From NCBI GenBank assembly GCA_030704615.1, contig CM060734.1, positions 372,001 through 436,000 of the forward strand: a DNA stretch of 64,000 nucleotides, in the 5' to 3' direction. The stretch is from Takakia lepidozioides (taxonomy: Eukaryota > Plantae > Bryophyta). Both the position numbers and the translations under genes were made by a program. Shown piece after piece: positions 9,415 through 61,122 of this stretch. Below the pieces are notes generated by a model. The model did no database searches. It was given only the letters and a program-made list of their open reading frames with translations, and was not told the DNA's origin. Numbering within the stretch: position 1 is the first letter of the stretch; each line of letters begins with the position of its first letter.

Positions 9415-10135
9415 ACACCGGCAGCTTCTGCAAGCAGCAGTGGGACGTCAAGTGGAACATGAGCTGGGAAGTCCACCCAAGCTCCTGCTGCAACACCAAC
9501 ACCCGTGCCTGCCTTTAACCCAGTTGTGGAGTTCTTCGAGGAATTAAGGAGAAACTACTAAGGGATAAAGACGGAGAAATTGCGGAGTTTGCAAGAGTTC
9601 CAACGAAAGACTGCTGAGAGTTTAAGGGAGGCTTACACGCGCATGAGACAATTGATAAATGTAAGCCAAGGGGTTACAGAAGCTCAAGCAGTCTAATTCC
9701 GGTATGGGATATTGGACAAGGAGTTGAGGAGAAGGGTGCGGGATGCAACTCTCCTACAAGTGGCCCAACCCACCTTAGCAAACGTGTTGGGGTTTGGTAA
9801 GGAGACACAACGAAGTGGGGCTCCTAGCCAACAACAACCACTACCCCAACGTATTCAAGGCAACAAAGGGGCTCAGGCGAAGCCCAGGGAAGGACAGAGA
9901 GGATGTCAATTGCAGAGGTCACTTCCTTCATTCTCATGCCAACAACAGTCGGGGGTGACATGTTGGGATTGTGGAGGACCCCATGTTAAGAGAGATTGTC
10001 CGGAGAGAGGCAAAGGGCCGGCACAGGCACAGCCTACACAACCACAGTGTAGGCATTGTGGCAAGTATGGGCATGAAGAGACCCATTGTTATGACTTTCA
10101 TCCTGAGCTACGGCCAGGCCAGTCAAGATTCCTGA
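9415..10135 (+). pseudogene. Gypsy gag fragment of the same family as the DNMT-bearing element
   Basis: Retrotransposon-gag-like FFEELRRNY*GIKTEKLRSLQEFQRK..ESLREAYTRMR with stops, plus knuckles CWDCGGPHVKRDC and CRHCGKYGHEETHC. The segment CYDFHPELRPGQ matches CGHCGKYGHEEAHCYDLHPELRPGQ at about 51200-51280 (-). Confidence 0.8.
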
Positions 10136-11403
10136 GAAGCCACAGAAGGTCAGGAAATAGTACGGCCAATGGGGGGAAGATGATTCTGATACTATTGGTT
10201 CTGTGGAGGAAACTTTTGACATGGCTGAGGATTATGCGATACAAAAGGCAGAGAAGAAACGACGGGGATCTCCTATGCCTAAAAAGTTACCTCCTTATCA
10301 GCCAAAGGCAGGGCTGTTAGCTCCATCTAGTCGACAGCCATCCCCACCAGCCACAGACATGGCTCGGACTCACACATAGAGCCCTCCAAGGCACTCTCAC
10401 CAACACAAGGGGGTTTGTTCACAGAGGTTTGTTGATCCTAAGAAGTAAACCGTGAGGACACGGCTTTTTGAGATGGGGAGGGATAATGTTAGAGGGCTGT
10501 CTGGGACTTAGACAGTTTTACGGGTTCTGTGGGGTACCCTTAATTTTGCGCAGACCTACGGTGGTAGACTCAGACCTATACAGACCTTAGGGGTGGTAGA
10601 CAGGCTTACACAGTCAGTCACAGCCTTACACAGTTAATAGCTTGACACAGCCTGTCACAGCCTATCACAGTCTATCACAGCTCGACACAGCCAGTCACAA
10701 TCTGACACAGCCAGTCACAGCTCGGCACAGTCACTGCTCGACACAGCTTGGCACAGCCCGTCACAACGTTCACAGAGAACGGTTATCATTGGCAGGGAAC
10801 GATTGTGTGGGAACGACATCTGCAGAGGGAACGTGCATTCTGTCTTGGATGACAATTAGTTAGTTAGGCGGTTAGAACAGCTTGCAGGTAGAATAGGCAG
10901 AGTAGCGACATGGAGGGGGCCACTTCTGAGATCGCTTCTTGGACATCACTTGAGGAGATCAAGCGGAGAGCACGATCTTAGAGCACATGGATGGAGATTA
11001 CACGGAGGAGGAGATACGACGAGATGATGCTTAGCTGTAGAGATGCATTGTAGAGCAGATTAGAGACACCATGGCTTCGGCCTGATACATGATAGATATT
11101 AATATGATTCCTATTTCATAATCACACCGTGTAGAGAGATATGAGTGAAGCTGTGGAATGAATGCTTGAGTAGATGGAACATGGTAGATTGCAGAAGCAA
11201 TTTGATACTTAATCATAGACAGTAAGGTAACTTGCTAACATGAATACGAGAAGGAATACAAATAGGAAGCACCCCCATGATACACTAGTTGCAGGTCATG
11301 ACTGATTGTTCTGAGCGGGCTGAGTACTTAGAGATTTCCAACTCTTCTATCTTGGAGTTTCCACCTCGGATAGCTAAGGGATGTGAGTAAAAGCCGCTCG
11401 ACA
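10136..11403 (+). mobile_element. 3' internal end, PPT and a 917-bp LTR (10487-11403) of an LTR retrotransposon
   Basis: PPT gagatggggaggga precedes TGTTAGAG at 10487, and the LTR ends CTCGACA at 11403. The segment is homologous along its length to 35528-36790 (-). It contains cacagcc micro-repeats at about 10610-10765. Confidence 0.85.
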
Positions 11404-16923: not shown

Positions 16924-17372
16924 TGGGAGAAGCCAATGAAATCACCACATTGTATGACTGATTCACCGGTCTATTCCAGCCATATATTACACTTGGGCAA
17001 TTTTTAGTGGTGCTACAAAGGGCGAGGCCACATACAAGAGAAGCATAAAAGCATATGAGCCAGTAGGTATCTAAAAGTGACATGAGGCATCGGCTACAGG
17101 GGACTGGTTGATGGTCTCTTTCAATGATGAATGGCCTTTAAAAAAAAAAAACCCCCCACCCTCCCATCCTGAGATTTCATGTACTCTGAAATCCCCTGTA
17201 GCCGATGCCTCATGTCACTTTTAGATACCTACTGGCTCATATGCTTTTATGCTTCTCTTGTATGTGGCCTCGCCCTTTGTAGCACCACTAAAAATTGCCC
17301 CAAGTGTAATGTATGGCTGGAATAGACCGGTGAATCAGTCATACAATGTGGCGATTTCACTGGCTTCTCCCA
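16924..17372. repeat. Inverted repeat with arms of about 180 bp (16924-17103 / 17192-17372) and a spacer of about 90 bp
   Basis: The arms are reverse complements with only a few mismatches. Confidence 0.93.
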
Positions 17373-20590: not shown

Positions 20591-20599
20591 TTTATTAAA

Positions 20600-24060: not shown

Positions 24061-24637
24061 GCTCATTTACCTATCTTTTGTATTCCTTCAAATAGTTGCA
24101 CGACCTCCCTATGACAACCATGCTGTGCATATCCTACGATCATCGCACTCCACGACACCACATCTCGTTCAGCCATATTGTCGAACACTCATTTTGCATC
24201 CTCCATGCACCCACATTTGGCATACATGTCCACCAGGGCAGTGTTCAGGATCACATCTGATACAATTCCAGCTCTGACGATGTCAACATGCACCTCTTCG
24301 CCCTTTTCCAGGGCTGCCAGGCTTGTACACGCACTGCAAACACACACAAACATGATGTGGTCGGGCTTTACCCCGTCGCACATCATTTGCTCATAGGTCT
24401 CCAAAGCCTCCATCCCATGTCCATGCTGTGCATACCTTGCAAGCATCGCACTCCACGACACCACATCTCGTTCAGCCGTAGTGTTGAACACTCTCTTTGC
24501 ATCTTCGATGCACCTACATTTTGCAAACATGTCTACCAGGGCCTTGTTCAGAATGACATTTGGTACAATTCCAGCTCTGAAGATGTCGCCATGCACCTCT
24601 TTCATCTTTTCCAGAGCTGCCAGGGTAGTGTTCAGAT
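24060..24637 (-). pseudogene. PLS-class PPR fragment (tandem 303-bp P-L-S triplets)
   Basis: ALVDMFAKCRCIEDAKRVF..RDVVSWSAMLARYAQHGHGMEAL..VKPDHIMFVCVCSAC..ALVDMYAKCGCMEDAK*. The next repeat is degenerate. Confidence 0.9.
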
Positions 24638-25293
24638 TGTCGTGCGCATACATATTGCTACACAACTACATCGCTGTCCAAAATCACACAACACATGTGC
24701 ACACCAAACACTACTCTATCACTAGTCCACCACTAGTGCACCACTAGACTGCCACTAGACAACCACTAGTCACCACTAGTGCAACCACTAGTCCATCAGT
24801 AGGCTGCCACTAGCCACCACTAGTGCAGCCACTAGTCCAACCACTAGTCTGCCACTAGCCATCATTAGTGCAGCCACTAGTCCAACCACTAGGCTGTCAC
24901 TAGCCACCACTAGTGCAGCCACTAGTCAATCACAATGATAAATAAAGGAATAATACAAGCACACAAGCTCTCTCAAACTCACACACTTGCACATGAAAAC
25001 ATCACTCATATATTAAGTCGAGCCAAGTGCACTCCACGCCATGGGGAATCCACACTACGGCGCCATAGCTAGACGCGGTGAGGCTCAACTCGAGAAAGAT
25101 GAGCCCACCGCGATCTGCCGTGAACATAACCACGCCAGGTGCCCAAACATGTATTGGCCCCTGGATTGACACTTGGGTCAATCCCAAATATCAATATATA
25201 AAAGCTAGCTATTTCCTAGCTAACTTCACACTAGTGGTAAAATAACTTGACAGCTGTCGTGCGCATACATATCGCTACACAACTACATCGCTG
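24638..25293 (-). mobile_element. LTR related to the 3' LTR of the DNMT-Gypsy element, containing ccactagt micro-repeats (24720-24930)
   Basis: Shares gacagctgtcgtgc..cacaac..catcg, aggctcaact..aagatgagccc and cacaatgataa with 44268-44822. A 39-bp direct repeat lies at 24638-24676 / 25255-25293. Confidence 0.65.
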
Positions 25294-29355: not shown

Positions 29356-32300
29356 ATGGGCAAGCTGCATGATGGTCCAACAGGGGCTATTGTTGGAGGG
29401 ACTCCCGTATATACAGGGGAGCCTGCCTATGTGGGACCACCTGCATACGCACCAAGTGCACCTGCATACTTGGACCAAGAAGCTGGTGGGATTGTGCAGA
29501 AGCCGCACATCAAAGAAAACCGGAAATGCCGAGACCTTCTGTTCCTGGTTGCCTTTTTTGCCTTCGGGATAGGCTTTATTATTGAATCCGCCTTCGGTTT
29601 TAATAAAGGAGACCCTCGCAGGTATGTTTCTTTGTATATCCTGGGTGAGAGCACCGTGGATGTTCAAGTACATTTATGAAACGGAATGTGCAAATTGTTG
29701 GGTGCTGAATATTGGTTTATGCTGCCACGGTGGAAATTTTGGGCTGACATCTGGGGATATGGATCTTCTGGCGTTCTGTGGGACATTGGGTATCAGTTGG
29801 AAAGGGGATGATTAGAGGATACAAAACCAGGGAGATTCTTTGCTCTGGATGCGGGCCGAGTGACCAGGAGTCACCATCCACCTGCCATGGAGGCTCCAGC
29901 ATCCACTGAAGATACTTGCTGGAATGCTAGCCAAGCTGTTCTTCTGGTGCTTGCTACTCAATTGAGTGTAGATTTTATGACCTGAAGTTTTTCTCTGCAC
30001 ATTGCTGGCTTGTCTATGCTGGGAAGGAAGAACTAGTTAATTATAACAAATTAATTTGTGGGGTCCATAATACCCCCTCTCTTGCTTGTTCCCCTGTTTC
30101 CTCTCTTCCCGGCTCCTTCCAGCTAACAAATTGTGGGGCTTGGCAGGCTGATGTATGGTTTAGATTACAAGGGCAATGTATGTGGTGCTAATAAGGCATC
30201 GCCAGATCTGAAAAACTTTGATGTACGATACTGGGTCAATCCTAACCAGGTCTACAAGAGCGGTGTGATCTCGGACACTTTCAACCTTGCTGATGCCCGC
30301 AGCATCTGCCTGCAAAATTGCCCCACCCCTAATAACACCACCCTCACCTGGGTCTGTGACTACCCGGAAGGTCCCATCAATTTGACCCTGTCAGATTGGG
30401 CCAGCAGGAACTACGACTACTATGACACCCTGACTTCCGAACAAAAAGCTTCCTCCAAGAATTTGTCAGGCCCATGCTACCCGGTTCTTTTTGCAAGCAC
30501 CAATTGTATGTTCTCCACCCTCTTCCTCCTTTCCGCCGTGCTTGCGCATCTCTCTCTCTGTCTCTCTCCACGCCAAAATAGTTTTATGCTTATGCTCTAT
30601 TCTCTGTTCTCTGTTCCTTGCGTCCTTTGGGCCTCCTGCAGACTAAATTTCTTCCTTTCTTTCTTTCTCTTCCTGTCATTTCATTTCTTTCTTTTCTCTT
30701 CCTGTTCCTAATCTCTTTTGCTTTCTTCTTCCCTCGAGGAATCTTGGGTGGTGGAAAGGTGGCTCTGTGGGGTGTGTGGAAGCAGGTAAGCAAATTTTAA
30801 GGTCAAACTTTTGTTGTTTGCTTCTGGATTGTGTTGGAAGCTTTGTGACATGGAAGGTGCTAAAATGCTAGACAATACAATTTTCTGTGAATCAGCACAT
30901 CTGGATATGCCTTTCAATGCCTTTTAGCAATTCTGTGCTTTCTCTTACCAGTGTATGGGTTCTTGCTTGTGGATGTCAGTTTTCTGGACTTGTCAATTAG
31001 AATCATCCCCAGCAAATGAGACGCTGCTACTTTGGAACAAAATTAATGGAACTCAGATTGAGTCTGGCGATGTGATTGTGAAAGTTGTCCACAAAGCACT
31101 GTCTGCGCCCATTACTGTCCTCAAGGTGTGTTGACCTTATGGTGTATGTAGGATTTGCTTCTCAACATAATTTCTAATTGTGTCATTGTGAACTCAATGA
31201 AATGGCGAAGTTCTGGTGAAGAGTGTGCTCTTCGAATGTTTGTAGGACCGTGATGTCTAACAAGATATTGGGTAAGTGCAGAGATACGTGGCAGACTTGG
31301 GAAGGGCATGGCCAGTTCTGGTGGTGTGTGGAGGTCTAGCCCCCCTTCTGCTGTCAGTAACATGGCTGCTCATAGTCCGTTACTTTGTTGGTGTCATGAC
31401 CTGGCTCACTATTGCTCTTCTGAACATCCTCACGCTTTTAGTTACGCTCTTTTTCTACATCAAAGGTGACTCTCTCTCTCTCTCTCTCCCTTGAACTAAA
31501 GAATCACTTGAAGTTGAATTGTAGTCTTACAGTTCTGGTGCTGGTTGTTGAGTGCCCCACTGTTGTGGTCATTCTATGGTTTCCTTTGTTTGTTCCATAG
31601 GCTGTTCAAGCTCCCTGTGGACTTGATGTAAGGTTTCTTTCTTTCTATCTCTCTCTTTCAGTCTGCCATGGATGTGATAAATGCCTGTCATCTTTCGTGT
31701 TTCTTAAATACCAGAAGCTGGCTTACACTACATGGATAACATTCTAGTGAACTAGTAACATCATCACATCGGATGGCTAGAGAACTCAATAGTAACTGTC
31801 GGTGTTGTGTGAGCAGCGGGGTGGATAGGCACGGATGCAGTAACAGCTGTAATTGGAGATGGTGCCAACAAAGTTCTGTCCTCTTCCACCAGTGTGAGTC
31901 ACAAGTTTCTGAAACCCAGGTGCTGAAGCAAGTTGTGCAACCATTTCATTCGGACTGAGCAGTCTGCACGCATTGTGGTGGCAAAATTTGTCTGGACCTC
32001 TATAACTAATCAGAAAAGCTCCTAGTCCATTGTATAGATGCTCAGGGGACCTGGCTCCAGGCATAGTAGATAGTATTGTGGATATGGCATATACTTGTGG
32101 CCAAGCAGAGAGCCAGGGAAAGCAGCTGACAATGTATATAGACTGGAACTTGTCTCTGTGCAGGAGCAAAACCATTTGAAGATCGTGGCAGTAATAATGA
32201 CAATTGTCCTGGTTGTGGTTGTGCTGGTCACTCTCATTCTGCTCAAGCGTGTTATTATTGCCGTGGCTGTCATAAAGGTGTTCTTCTTTATTAAACTTTT

Positions 32301-35026
32301 CTTTTCTCCATCCGAATAAGTATGAATTTAGTCATTGCATTAGTACCATAAAACCCAAGGAGGTGATGGTTGAGGAGTGATGTGTTACAATGAGAAGATG
32401 TGTATGCTTCAATGAATAGGAGAATTAGAGGGAGTCAGAAATGCATTTTACTCAGTGCCGATAGTAGGGAGAATGGAAGTAGGAAGATTGTCCTGTCCCA
32501 AACACTGATTACACTAATAATGGTTGCCATCTAATAGACAGAAGGAGATAATTACTCATAAGACGTTGTTTGGCGTAGCCTTGTGGCCATAGACCCTGTG
32601 CCCAGTGTGGAACAAGAGGGAACAGACACTACCTTTTTGAGGGGCTCACTCCAGTAGTGGGACTTACCTTGATATGAACAATCAGTCCTCTGGAAAGCCT
32701 TTCATATCAATCTGCTGTTTTGAGCTGCCAAGCAATTAGACCCCAACATGGCCGGAAAGGAGAAAGGAGAGAGAGAGAGGGGGAGTGAAATCAGAGACTG
32801 ATAGAATTCGCTCCTGGGTATGAAGAGATCCACAGTTGAGAACCGGGGGTGAAATCAACAGATAGGCATATCACTGTTGAGGGTTTATTCAGGTATCCCC
32901 TTGGTGGGAAGAGAACGCAAAGAGTGTCACAGTGCAAGCGCTGAGGTGACATGCCCATATGTTCCCCACACTCCAAGAATATGTTGCCCTCTACTGTGAC
33001 ATGCCCATATGTTCCCTCTAGACAAAAACTCAGAGAGCGAAACTGCACTTCATATGTTCCCTCTAGACAAGAGAGATACAAACTGCACTTCTAAACTTTC
33101 TAATTGAGATATTGAACAATGTTCAGTTAGCGAATGGAGGGAAAGTATTTACTAACGAACAGACATTGGTGACATGGTGCAGGTGGCAGCAAAGGCAATC
33201 GGGGTGATTCCGAGTCTTATTATATACCCAATCATTCCCTTCCTTGTGGAAGCAATATTTCTCATTTACTGGGTGGCAGCGTTGCTCTACCTCTTCAGTG
33301 CTGGGGAGGTCCGCCAAAACCAGTGCAATAACAGCTGCGCAGCGTACGACCTTGCTTTGCAATCCATCAGGGATACTGATTGCTGTGGATATGATATGCA
33401 CCACACTAAAAATATTGTGTGGGCCATCCTGTACCATATTTTTGGCGTCTTCTGGATCACACAATTCATAACTGCATGTTGTCTTACCACAATTGCTGGA
33501 CCTATTGCGGCCTACTACTGGGCGAGGGGAGAAACAGCTGTAAGCCTTTATAACCACGTCCTTACTTAGGCATAGTCGAAACCACGGAAGCTTGGACAGA
33601 GCCAAAAGGCTGGAGGTTTCAGGGGGGTATTGAATTGGAGAGTATTAATGTGGAAGAGTGAAGAGTGTGGGTTGAACTTCTACATGCAGTAAAGTCAAGT
33701 TAGTGAGGGAAAGTGTGTTTGCTGAAAAGCAGTTGAAACATATTCTTGGAGTGTGGGGAAGTAGAGGGTTCAAATAAAACATACAGCGCAGATCAATGTG
33801 GAAAGCATTGTTCACTGAGACTGAAAGATTGGACTGCAATGATCTGGCAGGACATGGGCTGGCTGTCCGTGGTATCGTCAGCAAAGCGGGTAGTGCGCTA
33901 CAGCTTGGGGTCGATGGCACTGGGGTCATTATTGGTGGCCATCATTCAGATGATACGCTTCCTGCTTGAGTTGTTGCGGAAAAAACTCAAGCCACTGGAG
34001 ATGGCTCCTGGTGGCTGCTGTCTCTCTATTTGCTTCTGTTGTGCTCAGTTTTGCCTGGTTTGCATTGAGTGGACCATCAAATTCATCAACCGCAATGCGT
34101 ACATTGTGGTACGTGTCTTTGCTCCATATGGGTCCCTCCATCGACATTACCTTCTTTCAGCTCCTCTTCTTCTGCAGTCAGATTATGGACAGGCAGTTTT
34201 TGACGTGATGGAGAGGAGGAGAGTGTCACTCATGTGGCTGTATATATTCACACGGTGTTGAGTGATTTATCTGATTACTGTTAAAAGGAAATGATGTGAT
34301 GACTTCAATATGGGGATTGCTGTAATAACATCTCAACCTTGCAATGCAGATTGCCATCTCTGGAAAGGGATTTTGTGGAGCTGCTGGAAAGGCCACTGGT
34401 TTGATTGTTAGCAACATATTGAGGGTAGGTGCTGTCAATATAATAGGAGACCTCATATTATACTTGGGCAAAGTCTGCGTGAGCCTGGCCTGTGCTCTCT
34501 TTGCCTTTCTCATGCTGGATACCCATAAGTACAAGAGCGGCCACAACAGAGTGTCTTCGCCCCTCTTTCCTGTTCTGGTAAGTGCTTTATCCTTCTAATG
34601 CACGCTGTCCAATTTGCTGGTCCTTCTATCACCAGTTTAGTCCCCATGGAAGCGAGATCCCTTTGACCATCACAGTTTAGTGCAAAGGTCATGATTAAGG
34701 GTAGCTTGATCACAGCATCTTTGCTGTTTCCAAGGGACATATTTGTCAGGTTTTATCCCCCATAAAGCTCAAATCACGGGTGGTGGGTGTTGCAGTCTTG
34801 CTGGTTAATTGGCTACATCACGGCCTCCATGTTTTTTGCGGTGGTAGAGATGGCCCTCGACACTATACTCCTGGCCTTCTGCATGGATTCAGAGGAGCAT
34901 AATGGTACTCCCATGTACGTGCCACCATTGCTCATCGATACATTGACTAATCACACCCACCGGCAAGAGGCTGCTGAGGCAGAGCGAGCCAGGCGGAAAC
35001 AGGAAAAGGCTGCTGGTCGAAATTGA
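29356..35026 (+). CDS. CTL1: Choline transporter-like protein (CTL/SLC44 family), 10 exons: 29356-29621, 30147-30505, 30980-31125, 31282-31465, 31817-31893, 32164-32277, 33183-33539, 33851-34108, 34350-34577, 34796-35026
   Basis: GT-AG introns join in frame. Family motifs RKCRD, YGLDYKGNVCG, RYSLGSMALGSL, IKFINRNAYI, GKGFC, NILRV and DTILLAFCMD are present, and no disruptions were seen. Confidence 0.93.
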
Positions 35027-43000: not shown

Positions 43001-45077
43001 CTGTTTTTTTACTTGCTGGCCCCTTCGTCGCTGTAGGATAAAACTAAAATCAATCCTAAAAGAGGATTAATCAGTTCTAAGGTTCATTCGCTGGGGAAAG
43101 CACTATACGACTAATACATAATGATGCTAGACTATTCTATCTCTCTCTATCCCTTCTTTGAAACGACTTTTACCCTCAGTCATCTTCAACTAACACGATC
43201 ATCATTCTTCCAGATTTATAAATATTCTCTCCATCTTCTATTAACTTTGCTCCATTGGCTGAAATCAAATACCATTGCTCAACTATATTCTTCCTCCAAT
43301 AATCTCTCTGATACAAAGTCAACAGCTCTCGATACCATTCTTTATTTACTAACCATAGATTAATTATCTCCTTGTCACTACATTGTAATCTCTTAAAATG
43401 AAAGCTATCTTTTCATCCATCCAATTAGATGACTAGTTAGTGCGAGTTGTCATTTCATCCATCCAGCTCCTCAAGGCGAATTCCAGGATTTTTCATCCAT
43501 CCAAGAAGTAGAAATACAAATAATAGGCCTTGTGAATGCCGTCGACTCAATAATTTGGCCCTGCTGCTAATCAGCTCCATAAATCACCAAACTTGGTGAA
43601 AAACTACAATTATATATCTTGTATTGGCCTATAAATTCTTAGCTCCATCGGTGGTAAAAAGTTGCGCTTCTCGCCATTCGTCGTATTTTCGCTACACACA
43701 TATTTTGTGGTATATTTGGAAATCAAATCCCTGGTGATGGCTCTAGGGTCTTTGACCCTGCCACTGAGTCATAGGTTGTCCGGAGTCCCCTCCAGTTGTC
43801 CCGCACCGCTAACAAGTCCACGCTTCGCCGTTTGAAGTCGTCTTGACTTGTTGTCATTCCGATGCGGCCAATTGCTTTGTTGCGATATTTCATCGTTATA
43901 CATGTCGCTTCCACCAATTGCCAAGCTCTTCGCCGTGTGTTCATACTGGACTTGAAAGGCGGGAGAAAAGAGAGATCGCAATCTGGGACTGGAACAGTCG
44001 TCCTGTATTGTTCGAACAGGATTAACTCGTTGTTTCTGGTACCGAATTGGCAGCCTAATCTGCTGTCGATGCAGCTTCCTACGGTCATCTTGACGCCAGA
44101 GTTCCACTCCATGGTCGTCGCAGACACTGTCTAATTTCCTACGTGCTTTACCAACGATTTCCAGACAACTAACAAACTAACATGTTTTGGCAGTACAATG
44201 CCGAAACCGCTTGTCTTATGATAAAAAACGATCTGAAAATAAAAGTGTACCAATATATGCATCTACACCACCACACATTCTAAGCATACAATCCTAGAAA
44301 ACTATGCCACAATGATAAGAGATAAGAAATGAGAGAAGTGGAAGACAATGAAAGCTCTCTAAGCATGAAGCAATCACACTAAGAACAAGCCTTAGTCCTT
44401 CCAATTGAAATCCACTCTATCACATAAACTAAGTCAAGTCAAGGGCACCTTTGCTTAAGGAATTCACCCTACAAAGCCCTCAACACACTCCCTCTCAATA
44501 CCTAGAGCTATGGAGGTGAGAGAGGCTCATGAAGGCTCAACTACAAGAAGATGAGCCCTCCTCAACCCTCACAAGGAGAAAACCCATCCCTATGTCCCAA
44601 GTGAGGCTTGACACCTCACTTGGCATATGAGACCAAATGAAGTCCTAACACACAAAATATAAATATAAATATCTAAAATGTCCTAGTTAACTAGAAGTAG
44701 GTAATTCTGGTTAACCATGACTAAAACCATGACAGCTGTCGTGCACCTAAGCATCGTGCCACAACATACATCGTTGTCCACCACACATTCTAAGCATACA
44801 ATCCTAGAAAGTTATACCACAATCGCCCCCTAGCTGGTGATTAGGTCCCTCTAACACCGGATAGCCGACAAGTATCCATCTCAATAAGATCATCGCTTGG
44901 TCTTCAATCACACAAGTCCCAGCATCTAAAATCGATAGATCAAGAGGCCGGGTGCAAAAGTAGCCCCATCATTAGTCGCCTTCCTACAATCCATGATCTT
45001 CAGTTGAGTATCCATGGCATTGAAGCCCCACTAGCTAGACCTTGGATCACTTGTCAGCCTCACCATTGCCATGCCCA

Positions 45078-45235
45078 CTACCTCTGTCCAAGGCATCGTG
45101 GACACAACCACTCTCCGCTATGAACCTCCTCAAGTGGCGGTGTTAAACATCCCATGTGCCACCCCCTTGAGCATTTATCACACACCAACATGGTTGCGGC
45201 ACCACCAGTATGCCCACATAGCATGCAATGCAATC
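45078..45235 (-). other. PHD finger at the integrase C-terminus
   Basis: CMLC..MLVCDKCSRGWHMGCLTPPLEEVHSGEWLCPRC (C4HC3). Confidence 0.92.
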
Positions 45236-48200
45236 CTGCAGGTACCACTGCAAGGTTGGGATCTATCCTCCCATCTACATGGAAAAGGTGACATGGCGCA
45301 CAATTGCGCACATGGTCCTTCCATACCATGCCATCCCGTCCCTCCAGAATCAACACTTCTGAAGGCAACACCTCCCTGACCCTTAGAATCACACGTCCGG
45401 CTGTGACATCCAAGGTTGTTGGTGTTGTCTGCTGCAGATACACATAGTCCCCAGGGTTGAATCTCCAAACACCCGGTTGATATCCTCCTCCATGTATAGT
45501 GGCTTACCTCAATGTGTCTCGGTGTTGGGCAATAGCAAGGTTCTCAAAAGCCAATAGGCACGACTCTCTTGAAATACTCTGTCCGCTGATTACACGCTTG
45601 TGTCCACACATCCGGATCATCAAGGTCGAGGACTACTGCAACCTCCTTGCGAATAGATGCAGGCAAATCTGGCTCTGGGCCGAAGAGAAGAAAGTAAGGT
45701 GAGAACGAGGCAAGTGATGTTTGCTTACTAAACATGTAGCCCATGGCCAACCAAGGTAGCTGAAGGTCCCAATCCCCTAAGTGTCCCTTCTGCAAGCCAT
45801 ACTTGTGCAAGCCTCTCTTGACTATCTGAACAACTCTCTCCGCCAAGCCATCAGCCTCGGGATGATCCCGAGAAGTAGTGCGGTGATCTATCAAGGTTTG
45901 CTCGCACAAAGCCTGAAACTCCCCCAAGAACTCTCTCCCCTGGTCCGTGAGTACCTCGGCTGGAGCACCAAATTGGCTAAGCACTCAATCTAAGAATGCA
46001 TACGCAGCCCCATCACTTGCCTTGTCAGGCAATGCCACCAGTTCAATCCATTTGGAGAAATGTTCCACCATCACCAGTACATACTTGTTATGGCGAATCG
46101 TTAGTGGCAATGGGCCTGCGAAGTCAAGGCTCCAACGATAGCCCAAACCCATAATGGGTAAATGATGCAATTGTGGAGTAGGGGCATTGAAAGAAGCCCG
46201 CACTCTATCACACACCATGTATCTTGCCACTAACTGCTGCACATCCGTGTGCATGCCCCGCCACCAGTACTGCCCTTGCAACAAACTATGAGTGCGCCGC
46301 ACCCCAAAATGTCCCAACTCCTCATGGCATGGCGTACCAATCGCGCTCGTTGTGTTGGATGAGGCACAATCCTCACTTGTCCATCCTCCCATACACGGAG
46401 TAGGTGAGTCCCCTCCTATTTGAACCTCTTGGCTCGTTGTAGGATCCGATCTCTCTCCTTCGCAGTCACACTAGCTACTATCTCTCCGGCACGAAGATAG
46501 GCCAACACTGCTGCATCTTCATGCACATCCTTAGCACCACCAAGCTCCTCACTAATCTCTGGATCGTCATGCACACTATCTCCATGACCAATCCCATGGG
46601 GTGGACCAGCTTGAGCTCATATTGCTAGAATGCACAAAAAGGCAGATGCATGTCATCCTGGCACCATCTCCTCGTCCATCTCACCATGCCAACGAGCTCT
46701 TGTACCATCAAGCTCACTTGTGCATGGATTACGACTCAATCCATCCGCATCCCGGTTGACTATACCGGCTCGATGCACCACTTGAAAGTCGTACTTTTGA
46801 AGCATAAGTGCCCACCATGCAAGCTTCCCTATAAGCTTGTCTGACTCCATCAACCACTTCAATGGTTGCTGATCCGTGACAAGGGTGAAGAGATTGCCAT
46901 AGAGATAGCATTTGAAATGTGCCACTGCCCATACTGCAGCTAAACACTCTCCTTCATATGAGCTATACTTTGCCTCAGCATCATTGTTCGAGCAGTAAGC
47001 ATATGCCACTACGAACTCTCTTTCCTCATCATCCACTTGTGTGAGCACTGCTCCAATCCCCAGCATACTCCAATCCGTATGTAGCTGGAAAGGCCGCCCC
47101 CGAATAGGCCACCTCAGAATAGTTGCAAAAGTCAATTGAGCCTTGAGTTCCTCAAAGGCTTCCTCCTGCTCCTCCTCCCACTGCCACTCCTGACCCACCT
47201 TGGTCAACTTGGTAAGAGCTTTCGCGCAATGCTGCTAAATCCCTTGACAAACTGACGATAGTAGTTTGCCAACCCCATGAAAGCATGAACTCTGCTTACA
47301 TCTATGGGGCGTGGAATGCGTGCAATGGCCTCCACCTTTGTCTGTTGAACACCCAATCCTCCAGGGTATATCATGTGGCCCAAATACTCAATCTGATCGT
47401 GGAAGAACTTGCACTTTCCAGGGTGCAGTTTCAATCCATGCGCCCTCAAGCGCTCAAACACCACCTGAAGGTGTCTCTTATGCTCCTCAACCGTGGCACT
47501 AAAGATGATGATGTTATCAATGTAGCACCAGGCGAAGTCTAGCCCTGCAAGAATCCTATCCATGACCCTCTGAAACTCTGCAGAAGCATTCTTCAACCCA
47601 AATGGTAGGAAGCGCCATTGGTACAAACAATCCTTCCCATGCTGGTCAATCCCCCAGAATGCCGTTTTTTGCATGTCAGCCTCTTTGATTGGCAACTGGT
47701 GATAACCCGATCGTAAGTCCAATGTGCTAAACACCTTTGCATGCCCAATGGCATCAAAGATTTCCTCTGGAGTTGGCATGGCATATCTATCGGACTTAGT
47801 CTGACGGTTCACCGGACGATAGTCCCCACACATCCTTCTTTCTATCCAATTGCCATAGATATCCTTCTTAGCTGGCATCACCGTTGCCGAGGCATACTCC
47901 CCGCCTGACAACTCCACCAATTCAGCTTCAAACAACTCCATAGTCCGTGACTGGATCAATGACCTCTCCATGTCACTATACCTGTGGGGCCTTTGAAAAA
48001 TTGGCGTGTCACTTGCCAAATCAATACAAATCTCCTGGCCCTTCAACCTCCCCAAATCCTTCAAACCAAAGATAAAGCAATTTCTATAAGCCCTTAGAAA
48101 TTGTCGGATCCTCCGTCTCTCTCCTCCGGTGACTATAGGTCCAACATCTGGTTCTTAATTGTCCTCAGTGACTGCAACCTTGGGTACACCAGGCTTGGAG

Positions 48201-48599
48201 GTAGGAGACGCATCCTTTGATTGCTAGATAACAACCTCTTGGGCCTTGTCTGCCCACCCTGACTGTGGCGTAGCCTCCACTTGCTCCGCCATAGCCACCT
48301 TGAAAACATCCTCCGCAAAAGAAACATCCTCAACCTCTTCAACAGCCTTGGCCACCTTGGAACTGATCCTCCGTGTATGGCTCTCCCCACTCCTCATATT
48401 GCTCCTTGAGAGATCCAAAGACTATCTCTTTCCGCATCTCATCCCATATCCGCCATGGGTGTTTGTACTCCATGATGCTGTGCTCGGCCCCACTCACTGT
48501 CTCCACCATCCCGGTTGGCAGAGAGGGTACAATATCCAATGGAAGTGCAGAAGTAGCCACCAATGCTTGCAATCTCCGTTGCTCAGCCATGCACAAGCC

Positions 48600-49550
48600 A
48601 ATGACCCATGTCAAGCAATTGAGATCCATTGCCTGACCCAACACCTGGCGTCGTGATGCCTCTAACAGAGCTGACACAGCTGTAGTGCCCGTGGCAAACC
48701 CCATTGCCCGCTCTCGCTCATCCGCACTAGGCTCCACCAATTGCTGTAGCGCATTGTCCCAAATCAACCCTGGACCATTGTCTCAAAAAGCATGAGACGA
48801 GGGAAAACTCATGAGTGTAGGCAAGGCCCCACGTGGCTACCCTAATCGATTGACCACCGCCAAAGGTGGACAGTCATCATGTCGCACCCTTTGTGGTTGC
48901 CTCCCTTGGTCCAAAATGCCCTCAACCGTGAGGTTGGGTGGCCGTTGAATGGAATCGTATGCTCTCTTGAGCAACTCTGGTGGTACAAGATTGGTCCACC
49001 ACAACCTAGGCCTATGTGCCCGTGAACCCATTGCAGCTGCATCTAATAATACAACTGGTCCAATCCAAGACCGCACCTGATGCACACTAGCCATAACCCT
49101 GGCCCGAGAATCCCCCATGAGAGGAACATTCTCCAGGATGTAAGCTGGAGGTTGCACTTGCCTCACCTGCAAGTCATGCAACACTCGTAACATCTCCCAA
49201 AACGAATGCAACCTTGCATCATGCAAGCCATTCCCATGACCTGCGGGAGAGTGTCATTGGCAAGGCCATCCAGCTATCACCAAATCAATTGCATCATGCC
49301 GGCCCAAATCATCCCCTCCCCAGCAAAGTAATGTCTGCTGGCAAGGCCTTTTGGTACCCTTGAATTGCTGAGAAAGGCAGCAACTGAGGATACTGGTGAT
49401 ACACATGAGCAAAGCAACGTGGTGCATAGAAACACGTCGAGCTATCTCATTCTTTTCCACATACAAGTACTTTTGTACTTTAATCCCAGCTTGCAACACT
49501 CCTGCAAGCCCAGTGTTCATGCCTCCAAACAGGTCTAGCAAACAAATCCC
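48600..49550 (-). pseudogene. C5 cytosine DNA methyltransferase domain within pol
   Basis: Motif I LDLFGG, II YVE, IV IAGWPCQ, VI ILENV, VIII AHRPRLWWTN, IX ERERAMGF and X LGQAMD, in canonical order. Stops and frameshifts are present. Confidence 0.9.
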
Positions 49551-52500
49551 TGAGTTAGGTGGTTGCTAGGTAATGGGCACCGTGTCCAAAGAAGCTAACT
49601 GAGGAGGTCCAGGTGATGTCACTGAACTCCCCTCACTCATCAATGGAAAGGCCTCCTGCCATGCTTGGTGCACACTCTCGCCTGCTACTTGCTGTAAATT
49701 CCCAACCGTACCCCACAGTGGAATATGCACAGGCACATGAGGAAGCAACTCAGCCTTGTATGCCAGTTGCTTGTCCTCATCAGATGGTGGCCTATCATCT
49801 GCATGGCTATTGCCCTCCAAGAGCTCACCACCCCAAGCCACCACCCCTGAGAATGCAGCCAATGTGGGCATCATGTTCCTATGATCCACCGCTACATTCC
49901 CAATAAACCACACTGGGAGCAGTGCACGTCGGCCATTACCTGACTGCCACTTCGGCCTATAGGATGTCGTTTCCTCCCAAAAGTTCAAAGTAAATCCCAT
50001 GGGGTATAACACAGCCCCACCAACAAGCACATCATATGACATCGCATCTATAACAATGGCTTTAGCTCTCATGACTGAGCCGTCCATAGGATGATCCGGC
50101 TACAATCGAATAAAGAGCTCATGGCGTGTAATCCTTCGCGCCTTCTCTGAACCACCCAAAGATGTTTAAATTTGGAAAGGGCAAGGCTCCAAATCCACCT
50201 CTGTAAGGCCCAAGCCTATAATTGCTGCCCTCCCCAACATCAATGGTTGTGCTCCCGAGTCCAACAAGACCCCTAGTGGCCTATGCCTCCTCCCGGTTGG
50301 GCCATCCAACTGAAACACTCCATCTTGATTGTCCACCAGGACTACTCGAAGAGTCACCATGCTGCGCTCAATGGCTGGTCTAGCTGGCAACTCTTGCAAC
50401 CTTGCAGCTGCCGCTTGCCATGGCGCAGCTGTGGCTGACTTCACCCTCGAATCCAAAGCAACCATAGACTGCAGCTTATCTGCTATCTCCGCAGATAGTG
50501 CCGATACATCACCACTCTCACAGAGTCTAGCTGCTAATCTGAACACAGCAGCTGGCCGAATCCCTAGCATTGCAATGGTCATTGCAGAAAACAATGGAGT
50601 TTGGCAAACAGCCGTAGCCGCCCCCAACAATGTACTGGCTGCACCTTGCTTTGCAGCACCACCCACTAACATTTCCTGAGCCACACCTGCTCTCCCCAAT
50701 GACACTCGTGGCTCTATCTCTGACACACTTGGATGAGCGGGTGTTGTCGATGGCGTAGTTGGCACTGTCTCAGCCAATGTAAAAGGATTGTGGAAGCATT
50801 GTCTGACGACTTGCTTCCCCCTTTTGTGGATCAAAATCCACATCCGCTCCTCTTGGCTTAGGAGCACACGTTGCTGCTCGAGTGACAGCAACAGCAGAGT
50901 CGAATACATGCAATGGCCCTGCAAGTGCGGCTCCACACATGAAGCCCATACCAATCTGGTCTTCCCTAGGCATAGGAGGTTGTGCAGGTGGGGCTTGAAC
51001 CTCAGGCCTTGGAGCTGGCGCAACATGAGTAGTGGCCATGGCAGCAAGACGTTGCTCTAGCTGGGCAAGTCTATCCACTGGTCATGACCTTGACCCTGAC
51101 CCTGTGCTCCTTGGTTTTGGTTACGACCTCCACCACGACCTCTACCTCCTCTACCTCTCTGGACTACATTGCCTCGTCCTCGGCCACCATTGTTCCCTTG
51201 GAACTGGCCTGGCCGTAGCTCAGGATGCAAGTCATAACAATGGGCCTCCTCATGCCCATACTTTCCACAATGCCCACAGTGTAGTTGTGCAGGCCAGTAG
51301 GCTGGATCTATGATATCAGGCCACTATAAGGCCACTATGTGCTAATTCCCCCCCCCACTAGCAAGCCATAGAGGCCTAGGGGAGGGTGGGTTGTATTTTT
51401 TTGTATTGGGGTTTGGGCGGGTAATTTTGCTTGACAGCAGCTGCCCCAAAGTCGCGAGCAGCCCGAGAGGAGCCCGGGTGCTGCGCTTAGAGAGTAGGGA
51501 CTCGATTACTAAAAGCGTGGAGGCAGCTGTGGCCCAGCCACGACGTACGGGAGCGGGGCCCCAGCACTGACCTTAAGTCGTACTGAGATCAAGTACATCA
51601 GCCGCGTGGCTCAGGCGTGAGGCCCTGAAGCGTGCGAGCAGGGTGCGGGTCTTTACCCGCTGGATAACCAAAAGTTGAGACGGACCGGCGGACGCTGGCG
51701 TTAACCGCAGCGGTCCACGGTTTGGACCGCTACGCACGGATCTGCGCCCCGTCATGTGGCGGGGGAGTTTTACGCAGCGGGCAATGTGTCTGCAAATTCC
51801 CTTAAAGGGAGATTCTTACCTTTAGCTATTAGATTCAATTTATACCCCTCTAAGGGTTAAGAGCCATTATCTAAGGCGCCAGTGGTAGATAAAATCTAGG
51901 ATTTTGGGAGGACGTAGCCTTGGAGGGGAACGTTCTTATGACTCCAAGAGAGAGCCAAGCGGGCCTGTGAGCAGTGAGCTAGAGGCGGAGACCTCGAGAG
52001 ACAAGGGAGGAGAGAAAATACTCTATCCTAAAAACTCGGCTACAGTGCGCCTTTCTGTCAGAGCCCAAGGTAGAGGATGACTTTTTCCACGGAGGGAAAG
52101 CGCACCAGCGCCTTAAAATAATGTAAAGGGGTGAAATCTGGCTTGGACCCACCAGTGGTTATTTTATTATTTACGCATGCATGTTCTGGACTAACGAATG
52201 TAGTGGCAGGGATGAGCTCTCAGCGAGATTCATTCATCCGATAGGGCCGCGGCAGTTACCCGCGGCAGGGAACGGTTCCCGGGTGTTCCTCGGTTCTCAT
52301 TGGGTTCCCACAGGGTTCCCAATGGCATCTTTAGGCGCCAAGGATATCTTTGGATTCCCCACATGATTTCCCACAGGGGAGGTATTTTTCCTGATTTTCT
52401 TAATTTCTTTTATTTTCCAGCATTTCTGATTTGCGAAATTGCTTAAATAGGATAGATGCACGTGGTGCTCGTTATAGCCTGCAGGGCGTTGATTAAACTG

Positions 52501-54028
52501 ATTGAACTTGTTGAGTTGAAGGGCTTAGAACCACCTTATTGAATTGAGTGAACCTATTGGATGACGATAGGCATTTTGGCCACTCATTTGTTAACACAAA
52601 GTATTTAGGCACTGGGGTAGAAAGCGTTGGCCCTTCCATTTAGAGGTGACTTGAACTTAAGCCCTCGGCGAAGGAGGGGCATTGGGAGAGGACGATTTTC
52701 CCTCTTCTCCCTAGGCTCGGCAGGTGCCTTGTGAAGGGATTAAAACATGTCCCGGCTATAGGCGGCTCGGGGGCCTAGGTGGTAGGAATTAGACAATAAA
52801 ACACAAAGACTTGGAAGGCAGTTACTGAGTAGATTGTAGGATACCGTAGGACTTAGAAACGCAAACTCGCCCTGTGAAGAGGAGTACGTGATTTCTCTTT
52901 GCCGGTAGGACTTAGATAGTGATCATAGCCACCATGTACGACCACGGACCCCCTGCACTAACCGCAGTCGGGTAGGCGGTTCAGTGAGCCCAACCTACAC
53001 CGCAACTTACCTCGGCCAACTGTGCTTCTGTGATTTGCTACAGCCTAGCCGATCCATTGTAGATTGTGGAGTGCATCTGGTGCGGGGCTGCGCATGGTAC
53101 TATCTACTCCATGTCACTATGGTCTGTTTATAGGCGTGGTGATAAATATAAACAGAGTTTTCTTGTTCTACACACGACTAGCGACAAAGTCAAGGAGTAG
53201 AACGAAAGAAACGTTAGCGGTAGGCTAGAAGGGAGGGCAGAGCGGAGAGTGGAGTGAATGCCTGCTGCAGCCTATCTATAAGGTAGATTTCCACATCATA
53301 TATGTACACATACGAGGCGACAGATCGATGGCTCATTTAAAAGTACGTTAGATTTCGGAAGTCTTAAATGTAAGAGGCGACGACTTATTCATGGATATCC
53401 TCATACTGAATAGATTGCTCTGCTGCTCACTATTGTACATGTGTATATATGAACTGTTAGATCGGCTTCTGTATGTTTGGCGGAGTTTTGCGATTTACTG
53501 TTCTGCTCCAAGTGTGCATGTCTTATCTAATATACATAGAAAAACCCATTTGTATGAACTAGTGACATTTGTGTGGAGCGCAATTTGCGATACCAGCTTT
53601 TCACTATTAGTTTCATAGATCCCTTATGCAAAGGCCTTTGGAATCACCGTTTTCGACACTGTATATAGTCCAGTGATCTTGAGTAAACATGCTACAGAAG
53701 CCTTCAGCACTTCCGGAGGACTGGTAAGCGAGGCCGCACTAGTTTGATGGTGTGCTTAATACCTTTAGGGGTTTAGGTGCGGCATCGTTGCAGTCTGTGG
53801 CACACGTAAAGCCATGGTATCTTCTGTAGTTCTGTAATTGTACATCTTACCAGGTCTGTTCATCTGTCCTCCGCATGTAATTAATTCTTCTTGTTGGATT
53901 GCAGCAATGAATGCTGCGTGTTGACAAGCGCATCTGGAGTCTAGTAGGGCCAAGGCAAAGCCAAAGGCTTATTGACTCTGGGATTGGCAACCTTGTGTAA
54001 CGACGTCTTCTGAGTGCTGAATACAAAG

Positions 54029-55804
54029 ATGGAGGCTATTTTTCCGAGAGGGGTGGCACTTACAGAAGATAGGTGTCAACAAATCTGTGCACACCTAAAA
54101 TCCCGTAAAATATCTGAGGAGGATCTCAATACGGCTTTGCTCCAGGCTGCCAGTAGAGGCTACGAGGACATTCTACATATTCTTATTGACGTGGGGGCAA
54201 CCAATTTGGTAGGTGCTATGACCTGTGCGGGATGGTCTGGCCACATCCACATCGTGGATGCCCTTATTTTACGAACAAGGCCTGTTGCCTTTGGTGCTGC
54301 CTTTGTGGGGGCGCTTGTAGGGCTTAAAGAAGACATGGTAAGACACGTGGTGCGGTTGGCCAACATAGAGGGGCTGGATAAGTGCCTGCTTATGGGAGCC
54401 GCTCGAATCTGGAGTTGCAAGACACTGGAAGAAGTATCTTTCCTGTCAAATGCGATTGAATGATTAGTGACAGCTGGGGCTAGTAGTTTCCAGAGAGCCA
54501 TTCAAATCGCTTGTGGTGATGCTGTCATGGGTTACTGGAACGGGCATGTCTTTGAAGATAAAGCCAGGATTCTGCAAAGAATAATTTGTTGGGGCTCAAC
54601 CTATCTGACAGCCGATTTCTTTGGCAGAATCCTTCTGATGATTTGTGTCACTTTTCTGTCTAAGTTGACTAAGCGCCGAGAAAGGAATTCGAATCTGCTG
54701 AGCTCAACAGATTCTAGAGGTGCCTCACCGGAGCAAAAAATGAAGCAACTAGGATTTATGCTTACAGATTCCAAAACTAGGGACATTCCATGCTTAGACA
54801 CAGTTGTCAAGGACATGATCAAAATCCTCTCCGTTGTGTGTCGAAATGGAGCAGCCCAGCTAGTTAGTAGTCGACTTCTTGAATTCACTGACTCCAACAT
54901 GGAGGATGTCAGGTCTTTGCTTCACATCACAACTTGTTTTCATCAACGTCCAGAGGCAAGTGTTGAGTGCACAACGTGCAGAGCTGAGTGGCCCCTGAAG
55001 ATGATGAAGTTTTTGCTCGTGGAATGCAGAATCAAGGAACTCGGTGCTACTGTAACAGTCCTCCCAGTGTTCCAAGCAGCCCGTTTGGATGTGCTGCTTC
55101 CAGTTGTACAATGTTTTCTGGAGCAGCAATGTGCTGATGCTTCATTTGTGTACCTTGACATGTCCCTAACATTTTGTCAAGGGGAAGCTATACAATACCT
55201 TCTTGATGTTATTCCCAGGCCAATAGATACAGCCAGCATGGTTGATGCTGTGAGATCTGCAGCCTCCAATACAAGAGGGCCCCCGCGTGGGCCAGAGGGG
55301 GTTCTCTTTGCTCTGCATTCAAACTTCCTGAATGATCCAAAAGCAACTTTGGCAAAAGCCACAGTACTGGCAGGATTGGCAGAAACAGACCACATAGTGA
55401 AGAGGCGCTTGAAGGAAGAGTGGTCTCAGCAAGCATTCACAGAAGGTATTCAAACTGGACATCGACACTTTTTTAATTGGATGCTAGTCAGAAAGCGGAG
55501 CTGCTCCTGGTTGCCAGTAGGGGAGCTTCCCCTGGAGCTTCAGGTGGCAATTGGCTACCTACCACTGTACAGAGACATTGTCACAACCCCTGGCAGTCTC
55601 TTATCTCAAAAGCAGCAGGGGGAGTTAGTAACAGCGGTGTGCCATCTATATCGAGGGAGCAGCAAGGTGACTGAAGAAGCTGTGCTGGAAGCTGATAAGT
55701 TCACCCTTTTGAGCTGGCTTGGGGCCTGCCTTCCTAACTGGTGCCGGGAAGTTAATGGTTCAAATAGTGCATCATCCCTCCACAGATTCTTCAGTGAGCA
55801 TTGA
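54029..55804 (+). pseudogene. SKIP35-like ankyrin-repeat protein, intronless, with one in-frame TGA at 54461-54463
   Basis: Ankyrin-like ALLQAASRGYEDILHILIDVGA and AGWSGHIHIVDAL. C-terminal FLNDPKAT..EEWSQQAF..LPLELQVAIGYLPLYR..LLSQKQQGELV resembles the SKIP35 family. The two ORFs are in the same frame. Confidence 0.75.
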
Positions 55805-60200: not shown

Positions 60201-61122
60201 GAAACCATACCTGGCTCCAGAATGTGGCTTTGTGTAGCCACTGGTCGAATGTGTGGTCGCTAACAACTTTTATTGCTTGTGTCTTTGAGTCCCTCTCAGG
60301 AGTTGGGAATATGTTGGTGTCTCTCACAAGTGGATCCGAATTCCAGATCTCCAACCACCTGATTTTGGTTGCATTGTCCACCATTGAAATGGAAAGGCGA
60401 TGTAGTTTCTCTTGAGTCATTTCTGGCTTAGAGCCATACTTGTCATAATGTGCTTTCACCTGCTCCAGAAATTCCGTGCCAAGACCTGGATCTGCTATCC
60501 GGATTTGTTTGTCGAATGCACTCATGAGGTTCTTCCTTTGATTGTTCATCTCGAATTTCATCATGTCCTCAAGCCCAGTTGCAGACCTCTGCTCTTCTGT
60601 GTGGGAATCATAGTACTCAGCTTTCGCCTTCAAACCAGTTTCTGCTATTTCTTGCTGCATTCATAACAGGTAAAAGAATCAAACACTGGCGTTTCTTGAC
60701 AAAATCTGCAGTAACAACAAGCAAACAGGTGTCAAGAAGCTTACCGTGTACATGTAGTCAAGAAAAGCCTCTCTTGTCAAGCTGTACCATGTGTTTGTCT
60801 TCTTCTCAGCACACCTCTTCATCTGCTGAGGACTGAGCACGTTCGTGAATGAATCCAATGGCATCAGCCCTATCTTCTGGATGCGGAATAGAGTGTGGCA
60901 GAGATTGGTCGTCACATGAGAGGTTTCATTGGACCTGCAAAAACCTTCAACTCATAAGTGGATTCCAAATTGTGGGAACTCGGAACAGGCACAATGTTGG
61001 CAACTTACTTGTTTATGTCGTGCATGGCTGTAAGGAGCTGCGTGACACGTCCTTTGTGGTTGAGAACCATGGAAACCGCGCTCCAATGCCATTCGATGTC
61101 GTCCGAGCGCCTTACGTAAAGG
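57295..61122 (-). pseudogene. Multi-exon gene ending in a beta-class N4C/N6A DNA methyltransferase-like domain; 5' end truncated
   Basis: TDLVVLDIPDG (motif IV position, about 58215-58248), FLSDSGALLL, then EKSPAFMQTLVETCSRHGGRVVDLSMGTG|ASFHACKSAGRHFFGMEAD across a GT-AG intron (57489-57574). Upstream exons extend to about 61120. In-frame TAG stops are present. Confidence 0.75.

Follow-up and report, generated by a model that had tools for sequence, protein, structure and literature searches.

Why should a retrotransposon carry a silencing enzyme, and how would the dose of that enzyme be set? The question is raised by a stretch of the Takakia lepidozioides genome (contig CM060734.1, positions 372,001 to 436,000; hereafter the window, 64,000 nt, in which all coordinates are 1-based), the minus strand of which holds a Ty3/gypsy element with a cytosine-5 DNA methyltransferase (C5-MTase, hereafter DNMT) domain between protease and reverse transcriptase (RT). 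A first-pass annotation had described it as a land-plant Gypsy retrotransposon with its own methyltransferase inside pol. Elements of this kind are already known from Klebsormidium (2018, PMC5890265). We interpret the element as a decayed member of a high-copy Ty3/gypsy family from seedless land plants, in which a Gag-protease-DNMT frame would end at a leaky stop codon and the enzyme, produced at the level of Gag, would methylate the element's own complementary DNA (cDNA); taken as a whole, this reading seems to us moderately probable. It builds on the identity of the domain, its place in the domain order, its conservation across the family, its catalytic residues and signs of purifying selection, together with a fixed stop in a particular context and, in relatives, split repeats and 4-bp target duplications.

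The methyltransferase domain and its element

The coding features of the element, all on the minus strand, are as follows.

51216..51294, minus: last zinc knuckle of Gag, CxxCxxxxHxxxxC (six-frame translation and relatives)
50776..51072, minus: Gag-protease linker, frame shifted in the window copy (tblastn, residues 401-479 of Marchantia ORF1)
49930..50310, minus: aspartic protease, LLDSG at 50267 (six-frame translation and relatives)
48582..49556, minus: DNMT3-like C5 cytosine methyltransferase domain, motifs unrearranged (profile, fold and PDB comparisons)
48218..48226, minus: in-frame stop TAG CAA TCA, readthrough-type context, 120 nt ahead of the RT anchor
47207..48148, minus: reverse transcriptase (PF00078, RVT_1, E 7.1e-31)
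46790..47180, minus: RNase H (PF17917, E 3.4e-30)
45547..46360, minus: integrase zinc-binding (H2C2) region and core (PF17921, E 6.4e-13; PF00665, rve, two weak pieces)
45093..45470, minus: integrase C-terminal part, which we take to be SH3-like, and PHD finger at 45093-45227 (PF00628, E 8.6e-11)

The order Gag, protease (PR), RT, RNase H (RH) and integrase (INT) fits Ty3/gypsy. Six-frame translation recovered the six C5-MTase motifs named in the first-pass annotation on the minus strand, between protease and RT and collinear with them (DLFGG 49535, GWPCQ 49271, ENV 49133, RPRLWW 49013, ERAMGF 48713, LGQAM 48641). All six share one frame with the protease motif and stand in the canonical order I-IV-VI-VIII-IX-X, with catalytic Cys, Glu and Arg-x-Arg arranged as in the DNMT3 family. 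The PHD finger, which the annotation had lacked, was detected by Pfam; its closest solved counterparts are those of CHD4, KDM5B and KDM5A. These fingers read unmethylated H3K4, and for the idea that the finger on the integrase directs targeting to H3 tails we see the chances, judged from sequence, as evenly balanced.

With stops read as X, the window domain matched PF00145 with an E-value of 2.5e-9 (37.4 bits, cut-off 22), in agreement with the annotation. Its best solved relative was human DNMT3A (E 3.2e-11, single sequence against the PDB), and a profile of 67 relatives placed DNMT3A on top (1e-25), followed by DNMT3C/3B, a DRM-type enzyme (9e-14) and M.HhaI (4e-10). A structure model from the 67-row alignment had a mean pLDDT of 91.4 and was poor only at residues 83-93, the out-of-frame part. 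All 32 rows listed by Foldseek were DNMT3A/3B/3C. A wide structural search ranked DNMT3B first (Z 27.4, rmsd 2.8, 278 aligned) and DNMT3A second (Z 26.2), with M.MpeI (24.6), M.HhaI (22.2), DNMT2 (22.0) and DRM2 (8.3, 136 residues) below them. In sequence similarity and predicted fold the domain is thus DNMT3-like, descent from a host DNMT3 being a further claim. Among the 46 ORF1-type rows of the alignment, the catalytic Cys and the Glu of ENV are invariant (46/46 each) and the motif VIII Arg is present in 45, and intact members are very likely, from their sequences, to be catalytically active. In the unchecked alignment, Glu replaces the Pro ahead of the catalytic Cys in 40/88 RH-DNMT-INT rows, 7/15 DNMT-RT rows and 5/46 ORF1-type rows.

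The window copy itself is dead and 5'-truncated, as the annotation had it. Six stops lie across protease and DNMT, three of them within the DNMT domain, a short stretch of which (near 49320-49400) is out of frame; the second open reading frame (ORF2) has additional stops and frame changes; and the NH2-terminus of gag and the 5' repeat are missing, with nothing of the element upstream of about 51295.

A stop codon between methyltransferase and reverse transcriptase

The placement of the domain within a pol polyprotein stood in part: the domain is collinear with pol, but it closes the Gag-protease frame (ORF1), a stop precedes RT-RH-INT, and it belongs to pol only by way of likely readthrough. 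We compared this junction in 81 sequences, namely the window and 80 metagenome loci that hold the domain (L-numbers), of which 59 contained both anchors; three exact duplicates were removed. In locus L025 two open frames of 1369 and 1047 codons lie in the same frame and are separated by a single stop, and L030 has the same junction, with ORF2 open over 1047 codons. Within the close clade the stop lies 87-150 nt ahead of the RT anchor in 28/29 rows and is followed by CAR-YY in 26/29, the exact form CAR-YYA being found in four (the window, L025, L027 and L030). Stop plus CAR-YY occurred in none of the 27 distant rows and in 5/121 decay stops within DNMT and RT. When 38 close loci were mapped onto one reference, a single near-fixed stop (30/31) emerged over 1580 codons from gag to RT, five other positions reaching 30-42% stops. 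In the Takakia family no variant at a frequency of 15% or more affects the TAG, and the only change in its context is from pyrimidine to pyrimidine; the nearby stop at 48155-48157, 70 nt beyond the TAG, is private to the window copy. The exact stop plus CAR-YYA context is found at 13 of the 5313 stop triplets in the window.

In published work, CAR-YYA figures as the signal for readthrough of the tobacco mosaic virus (TMV) type (PMC2194720, PMC2754532; here and below, cited from the available parts of the papers), and plant reporters showed 6-32% readthrough with it (PMC2754532). The junction thus resembles the type I readthrough of TMV and of BNYVV (beet necrotic yellow vein virus), in which UAG and then CAR-YYA precede an in-frame downstream polymerase, and in-frame stops are also found in gag-pol of murine leukaemia virus (MuLV), in pol-env of SIRE1 and in Tca2 (PMC2754532, PMC2194720). 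Here the stop follows protease and methyltransferase rather than Gag. Readthrough at the conserved stop is, in our estimate, likely.

On this basis ORF1 would yield Gag-protease-DNMT, to which rare readthrough would append RT-RH-INT-PHD. In gag-pol recoding, products ahead of the stop are made at capsid level. Since the DNMT lies upstream of the stop, it would be a capsid-level enzyme, abundant inside the particle where cDNA forms, and its packaging and release by the protease are probable. The cDNA would be the nearest unmethylated DNA and could be methylated by the packaged enzyme; whether it would be the chief target, new copies then being methylated on arrival, we rate as an even call. Such methylation might hide the new copy, dampen it so as to spare the host, or mark the target.

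Two further observations concern the junction. A gag/pol frameshift in the distant clade was considered and rejected, given that gag and protease share a frame in L044 and L047; the signal probably stems from an indel peculiar to the reference locus. Six DNMT-RT proteins from the library searches (P-numbers; P0040, P0051, P0059, P0066, P0152 and P0219) start 8-90 residues ahead of the DNMT, which may reflect a stop or frameshift before the domain or mere truncation.

The family, its repeats and its known relatives

Among longer proteins, a search gave 75 matches from 7991 scored candidates, the best being 55-63% identical. Named among the 75 were Marchantia (15 records, which in some cases include one locus twice in two annotations), Calypogeia fissa, Sphagnum fallax and K. 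nitens (one each), the last matched directly as KFL_009030040 (E 1.4e-45, 42%); the chlorophyte Hariotina was added by cluster look-up. A full-library search returned 210 representatives at E <=1e-30. Typing of 218 proteins by domain order gave 28 of Gag-PR-DNMT type, which end before RT, 16 PR-DNMT, 36 RT-RH-DNMT-INT-PHD and 61 DNMT alone, the others being partial forms. The order RT-RH-DNMT-INT-PHD was found in the chlorophytes Hariotina and Scenedesmus (P0068, P0093, P0048 and others), and the DNMT lies ahead of RT in a Closterium element; the position of the domain has shifted within one RT clade. In most of the 80 metagenome loci, PR, DNMT and RT are collinear. Elements of Marchantia, Calypogeia, Sphagnum and Klebsormidium have the domain at an identical position, and it is therefore no one-off insertion.

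The phylogenies that had been proposed were computed for DNMT (150 rows, rooted at the midpoint without a host outgroup; short rows and rows of DNMT alone excluded) and RT (174 rows, FastTree). Both group the window with copies from Marchantia and Calypogeia and of Sphagnum type (support 1.0 and 92, respectively). A single 156-row clade (support 93) takes in every DNMT-bearing RT; within it, the window clade and K. nitens P0061 are not sisters, and deep nodes are weak. The ratio of nonsynonymous to synonymous substitution rates (dN/dS), also suggested as a check, was 0.09-0.13 between the window and three peat-moss-type loci and 0.11 and 0.13 for two pairs of open elements; between families it was 0.09-0.21 in the five of eight pairs that were computable, three being saturated. 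These values, around 0.1, point to a DNMT domain under purifying selection between families. Marchantia has at least five open ORF1 copies of 1278-1281 amino acids, which are 95.5-97.8% identical and have complete catalytic motifs.

The multi-copy nature of the family, surmised in the annotation, was borne out by the metagenome loci and by a DNA run of the species, in which 33,126 of 3,038,600 contigs fall on the element and all 30 bins, including those of the DNMT, are covered; this coverage reflects many variant copies and is not a copy number. None of the 15 joints listed (there were 138 further joints) skips the DNMT; the metagenome loci had been chosen by that domain. Many contigs likewise fall on the flanks at 43600-44260 and 51330-52400, with a joint that connects 51910 to 43950; the window element may sit within another repeat. 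Two presumed RNA runs held only scattered, divergent pieces of the element. No vascular plant was named in the element clade, a weak negative given that annotated protein sets usually mask transposons, and a viral contig set gave four pattern matches to Marchantia ORF1, none of them confirmed.

Two neighbouring groups were seen. A second clade, L041-L080, the distant clade of the junction comparison and likewise associated with bryophytes, shows about 40% DNMT identity, groups in RT with Calypogeia P0423, has split repeats like those described below and turns up in metagenome sets that also contain the peat-moss-type family. Immediately beyond the DNMT clade lie the Gypsy polyproteins P0435, P0440, P0444 and P0454, with PF05869, which we take to be a Dam-type adenine methylase, and in some cases a PHD finger. 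These four are probably DAM-LTRs of a 2026 preprint (bioRxiv 10.64898/2026.05.21.726589).

The plain long terminal repeat (LTR) layout assumed in the annotation did not hold, in that the repeats are split direct repeats of the form A-coding-B-A-B. The repeat features of the window are the following.

44824..44837, minus: polypurine tract ahead of repeat B1 (same motif before B1 in L034, L043 and L016)
44737..44822, minus: repeat B1, TGTGG...CACGACA
44313..44736, minus: repeat A2, beginning at the junction CACGACA-GC-TGTCA
44268..44312, minus: repeat B2, truncated (46 bp, 93% to B1)
24638..25293, minus: solo-type repeat of a related subfamily (part of B, junction, A, B), beside a PPR fragment

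The window copy retains B-A-partial B, its 5' end and outer 3' end being lost. Among 25 self-compared loci the arrangement is complete in six (L034, L043, L042, L048, L055 and L074) and partial in five more, the others being cut by contig ends or without a match; the full-length relatives L034, L043 and L042 measure 9.1-9.3 kb. Termini of the relatives are TGTCA...CGACA, with 4-bp target duplications in five of the six full elements (aagg, cata, ggtc, ccaa and tttc) and none in L048, which fits a DDE integrase. A preference for CG targets, considered on the model of the NCGN rule of Phygy, was rejected, none of the five duplications being NCGN. Where B meets A internally, the sequence is CACGACA-GC-TGTCA or nearly so, as at 44737 in the window copy and at 25253 in the solo-type repeat, which the annotation had called a related LTR; 47 bp at 79% together with the common junction motif uphold that relation, and the kinship is only loose.

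The palindromic junction ACAGCTGT was seen in 3' repeats at 44737 and 25253 of the window and in L012, L025, L030, L034, L042, L049 and L055. Integrase-type ends face each other at this ACAGCTGT junction, which therefore suggests integration from a circular intermediate. The polypurine tract adjoins B, not A. We infer that B-A would be the true LTR of reverse transcription and that integrase would open a two-unit circle at one internal junction. No tRNA primer-binding site was seen after A1 on inspection by eye, no tRNA library search having been made.

Of the known systems, KnitGypsy-Dnmt3 of K. nitens (PMC5890265) is alike in its Gypsy domain set, in an unrearranged Dnmt3-related domain between protease and RT, in a DIRS-like repeat layout A-coding-B-A-B and in purifying selection. 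The claim of a land-plant methyltransferase-bearing Gypsy therefore holds across the family, but not as a private capture, the element being a variant of KnitGypsy-Dnmt3 shared with liverworts and peat moss. In KnitGypsy-Dnmt3 and P0061, DNMT and RT lie in one Pol frame, as also in the L041-L080 clade, whereas in the window clade the DNMT closes ORF1 before the stop. The window family further differs in its land-plant host, in apparently far more copies, in a PHD finger on the integrase (none was seen in the partial K. nitens P0061) and, in its relatives, in the 4-bp duplications and termini, which are undescribed in the available account of KnitGypsy-Dnmt3 (PMC5890265). What is added beyond the 2018 finding is the land-plant range, the stop that would set the dose, and the open Marchantia copies.

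Cytosine methyltransferases are also borne by SymbioDIRS-Dnmt3 and SymbioLINE-Dnmt of Symbiodinium, which belong to other retroelement classes or other DNMT clades, and the former gave de novo CG methylation in yeast (PMC5890265). EpiLTRs of Cymbomonas and Euglena likewise carry a DNMT, but theirs is sister to DNMT4 and accompanied by DAM and a chromodomain (bioRxiv 10.64898/2026.05.21.726589). Phygy of Physcomitrella (PMC6317226) is likewise a bryophyte non-chromovirus gypsy element with a 4-bp target site duplication and a similar length (7.7-10.0 kb), but has NCGN targets (100% in REXdb) and a tRNA-Trp primer-binding site and is listed with no extra domain.

Full-text literature, with few subscription papers and no Repbase, yielded nothing on land-plant members, readthrough or the chlorophyte order. 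A term search of three supplement files of the K. nitens study (PMC5890265) found Marchantia and Sphagnum unnamed. Such land-plant elements are unmentioned in the available parts of Marchantia and hornwort methylation papers (10.1101/363937, PMC10952607, PMC12344493) and of papers on Apopellia (PMC12885004) and plankton RTs (PMC5029228). Later papers specify only "streptophytes" (PMC12344493; bioRxiv 10.64898/2026.05.21.726589), although the supplementary tree of the latter may hold land-plant sequences. An opinion paper describes methylase-encoding transposons as absent from land plants such as tracheophytes (PMC6338049), and a Marchantia paper counted five DNA methyltransferases, every one a host gene (PMC5784723).

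The role of the enzyme and the setting of the element

Several observations weigh against a Gag-level, cDNA-methylating enzyme. Within families dN/dS is 0.38-0.81, as decaying copies would give, and the synonymous distances of deep pairs are near saturation. Of the 29 close rows, 25 belong to one peat-moss-type family with near-duplicate contigs, and the stop motif therefore rests on about four independent lineages; in that family the context is CAA CCC, one base off CAR-YYA, and is followed by an ATG that permits restart. Marchantia proteins end 97 residues past motif X, the junction being known there from protein ends alone. The L041-L080 clade is without a stop between DNMT and RT, so that Gag-level dosage is not needed for the element to function. 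KnitGypsy-Dnmt3 gave no methylation in yeast, a result that its authors call inconclusive (PMC5890265). CpG depletion is uninformative as a footprint of self-methylation, given that the observed/expected ratio of the element (0.43) shows it to be no more depleted than host genes of the window (0.42 and 0.36).

An active enzyme might instead act mainly on the insertion site, on copies in trans or on element RNA, or might serve mainly in DNA binding within the particle or the integration complex. A Gag-level surplus could work in trans, and the position of the domain directly before integrase in the chlorophyte relatives, seen in all 36 full proteins of that order, fits a role in integration. 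An RNA substrate is at odds with a fold closer to DNMT3 and M.MpeI than to the tRNA enzyme DNMT2, and a binding role alone would not require invariant catalytic residues. We regard this group of alternatives as possible, though doubtful.

It is also conceivable that the stop is an ordinary terminator and that ORF2 (RT-RH-INT-PHD) is expressed by restart, splicing or a transcript of its own. Past the stop, the peat-moss-type family has an ATG three codons on, L027 and L030 have one at codon 5 or 14, and in Candida the gag-pol stop of Tca2 is circumvented by a separate pol RNA (PMC2194720). An early Met is, however, absent from L025 (117) and the window (85), and the scatter of first Met positions over codons 3, 5, 14, 85 and 117 in five elements therefore indicates no shared restart site. 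ORF1 and ORF2, moreover, always share a frame, and CAR-YY persists in linkers that are otherwise unalignable. Separate expression of ORF2 thus appears unlikely.

Similarly improbable is a phage or bacterial origin of a domain that merely resembles DNMT3. Phage enzymes did match an intact relative, in 138 of 50,697 records and with 23-31% identity and 58-75 bits for the best, and they make up the second and third Atlas clusters; "DNMT3-like" is therefore supported and "derived from host DNMT3" is not. The CpG-specific M.MpeI ranks third in the fold search. Conversely, DNMT3A/3B top every PDB search, and de Mendoza 2018 put the Klebsormidium relatives in a divergent Dnmt3 clade (PMC5890265). One-off capture of a host DNMT3 retrocopy, or an algal contig, has nothing in its favour and is refuted by the same position and clade of the domain in Marchantia, Calypogeia and Sphagnum, by variant-copy contigs over all 30 bins and by a host gene of the window that groups with land-plant orthologues.

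That gene, which settles the concern over algal contamination, and the other copy of the family in the window are listed here.

30145..35026, plus: choline-transporter-like host gene with introns, outside the element
9499..10179, plus: Gag fragment of another copy of the family (47% to Marchantia ORF1)

The best named matches to one exon of the host gene were Sphagnum (80%), Ceratodon (73%), Physcomitrium (70%) and Ginkgo (64%). A four-exon tree, from a search with 36 matches that included no liverwort, hornwort, lycophyte or fern orthologue, groups it with orthologues of land plants but not within seed plants, Sphagnum or the Ceratodon-Physcomitrium clade, and gives no finer placement. From this gene a bryophyte host is likely, a lycophyte or fern less so. 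The second gag, previously given as 9415-10135, is real, and is 91% identical to 51203-51294 over 92 bp. Pfam supported the reported PPR fragments at 15964-16941 and 24192-24665 and, weakly, at 13609-13986, their PLS type being assigned by eye only; all three are broken, and two share a 209-nt repeat family.

Elsewhere in the window, another gypsy element at 61064-63765 (plus; protease, RT, RNase H and integrase) has no DNMT match, and its CpG ratio of 0.87 indicates that it is probably younger. An intronless ankyrin-repeat-like frame of about 596 codons lies at 54014-55804 (plus; one stop at 54461-54463; weak Ank matches), a protein kinase-like frame at 6779-7606 (minus; PF00069, E 5.8e-8) and a DUF4216 frame at 20531-21610 (minus). 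Repeats comprise nested long inverted repeats at 16924-18947 (425 nt, 98%; 127 nt, 97%; 109 nt, 100%), tandem 50-nt units at 8628-9236, upstream of the Gag fragment, and a block of 120-nt and 400-1000-nt repeats at 1795-5064.

More tentatively, and as a joint proposition that we hold to be rather unlikely in its entirety, a single ancient Ty3/gypsy lineage of green plants, with members in chlorophytes, Klebsormidium, Closterium, liverworts and mosses, may never have lost an active DNMT3-like enzyme and a PHD reader. The dose would be set by placement of the domain, whether after RNase H, in one polyprotein, or, in the land-plant clade of the window element, in a Gag frame with a leaky stop; the bulk of the enzyme would reside in particles, cDNA would be pre-methylated, and a circle cut at ACA-GC-TGT would give rise to the split repeats.

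Why a retrotransposon should carry a silencing enzyme has been an open puzzle since 2018, the sole gypsy case having shown no activity in yeast. Bryophytes have such elements in abundance, and the open copies of one of them, the genetic model Marchantia, put activity, sequence context and readthrough within direct experimental reach. Once silencing is lost, Marchantia could express unannotated methyltransferases and, if the wider proposition is true, these elements could seed de novo methylation there without host enzymes.

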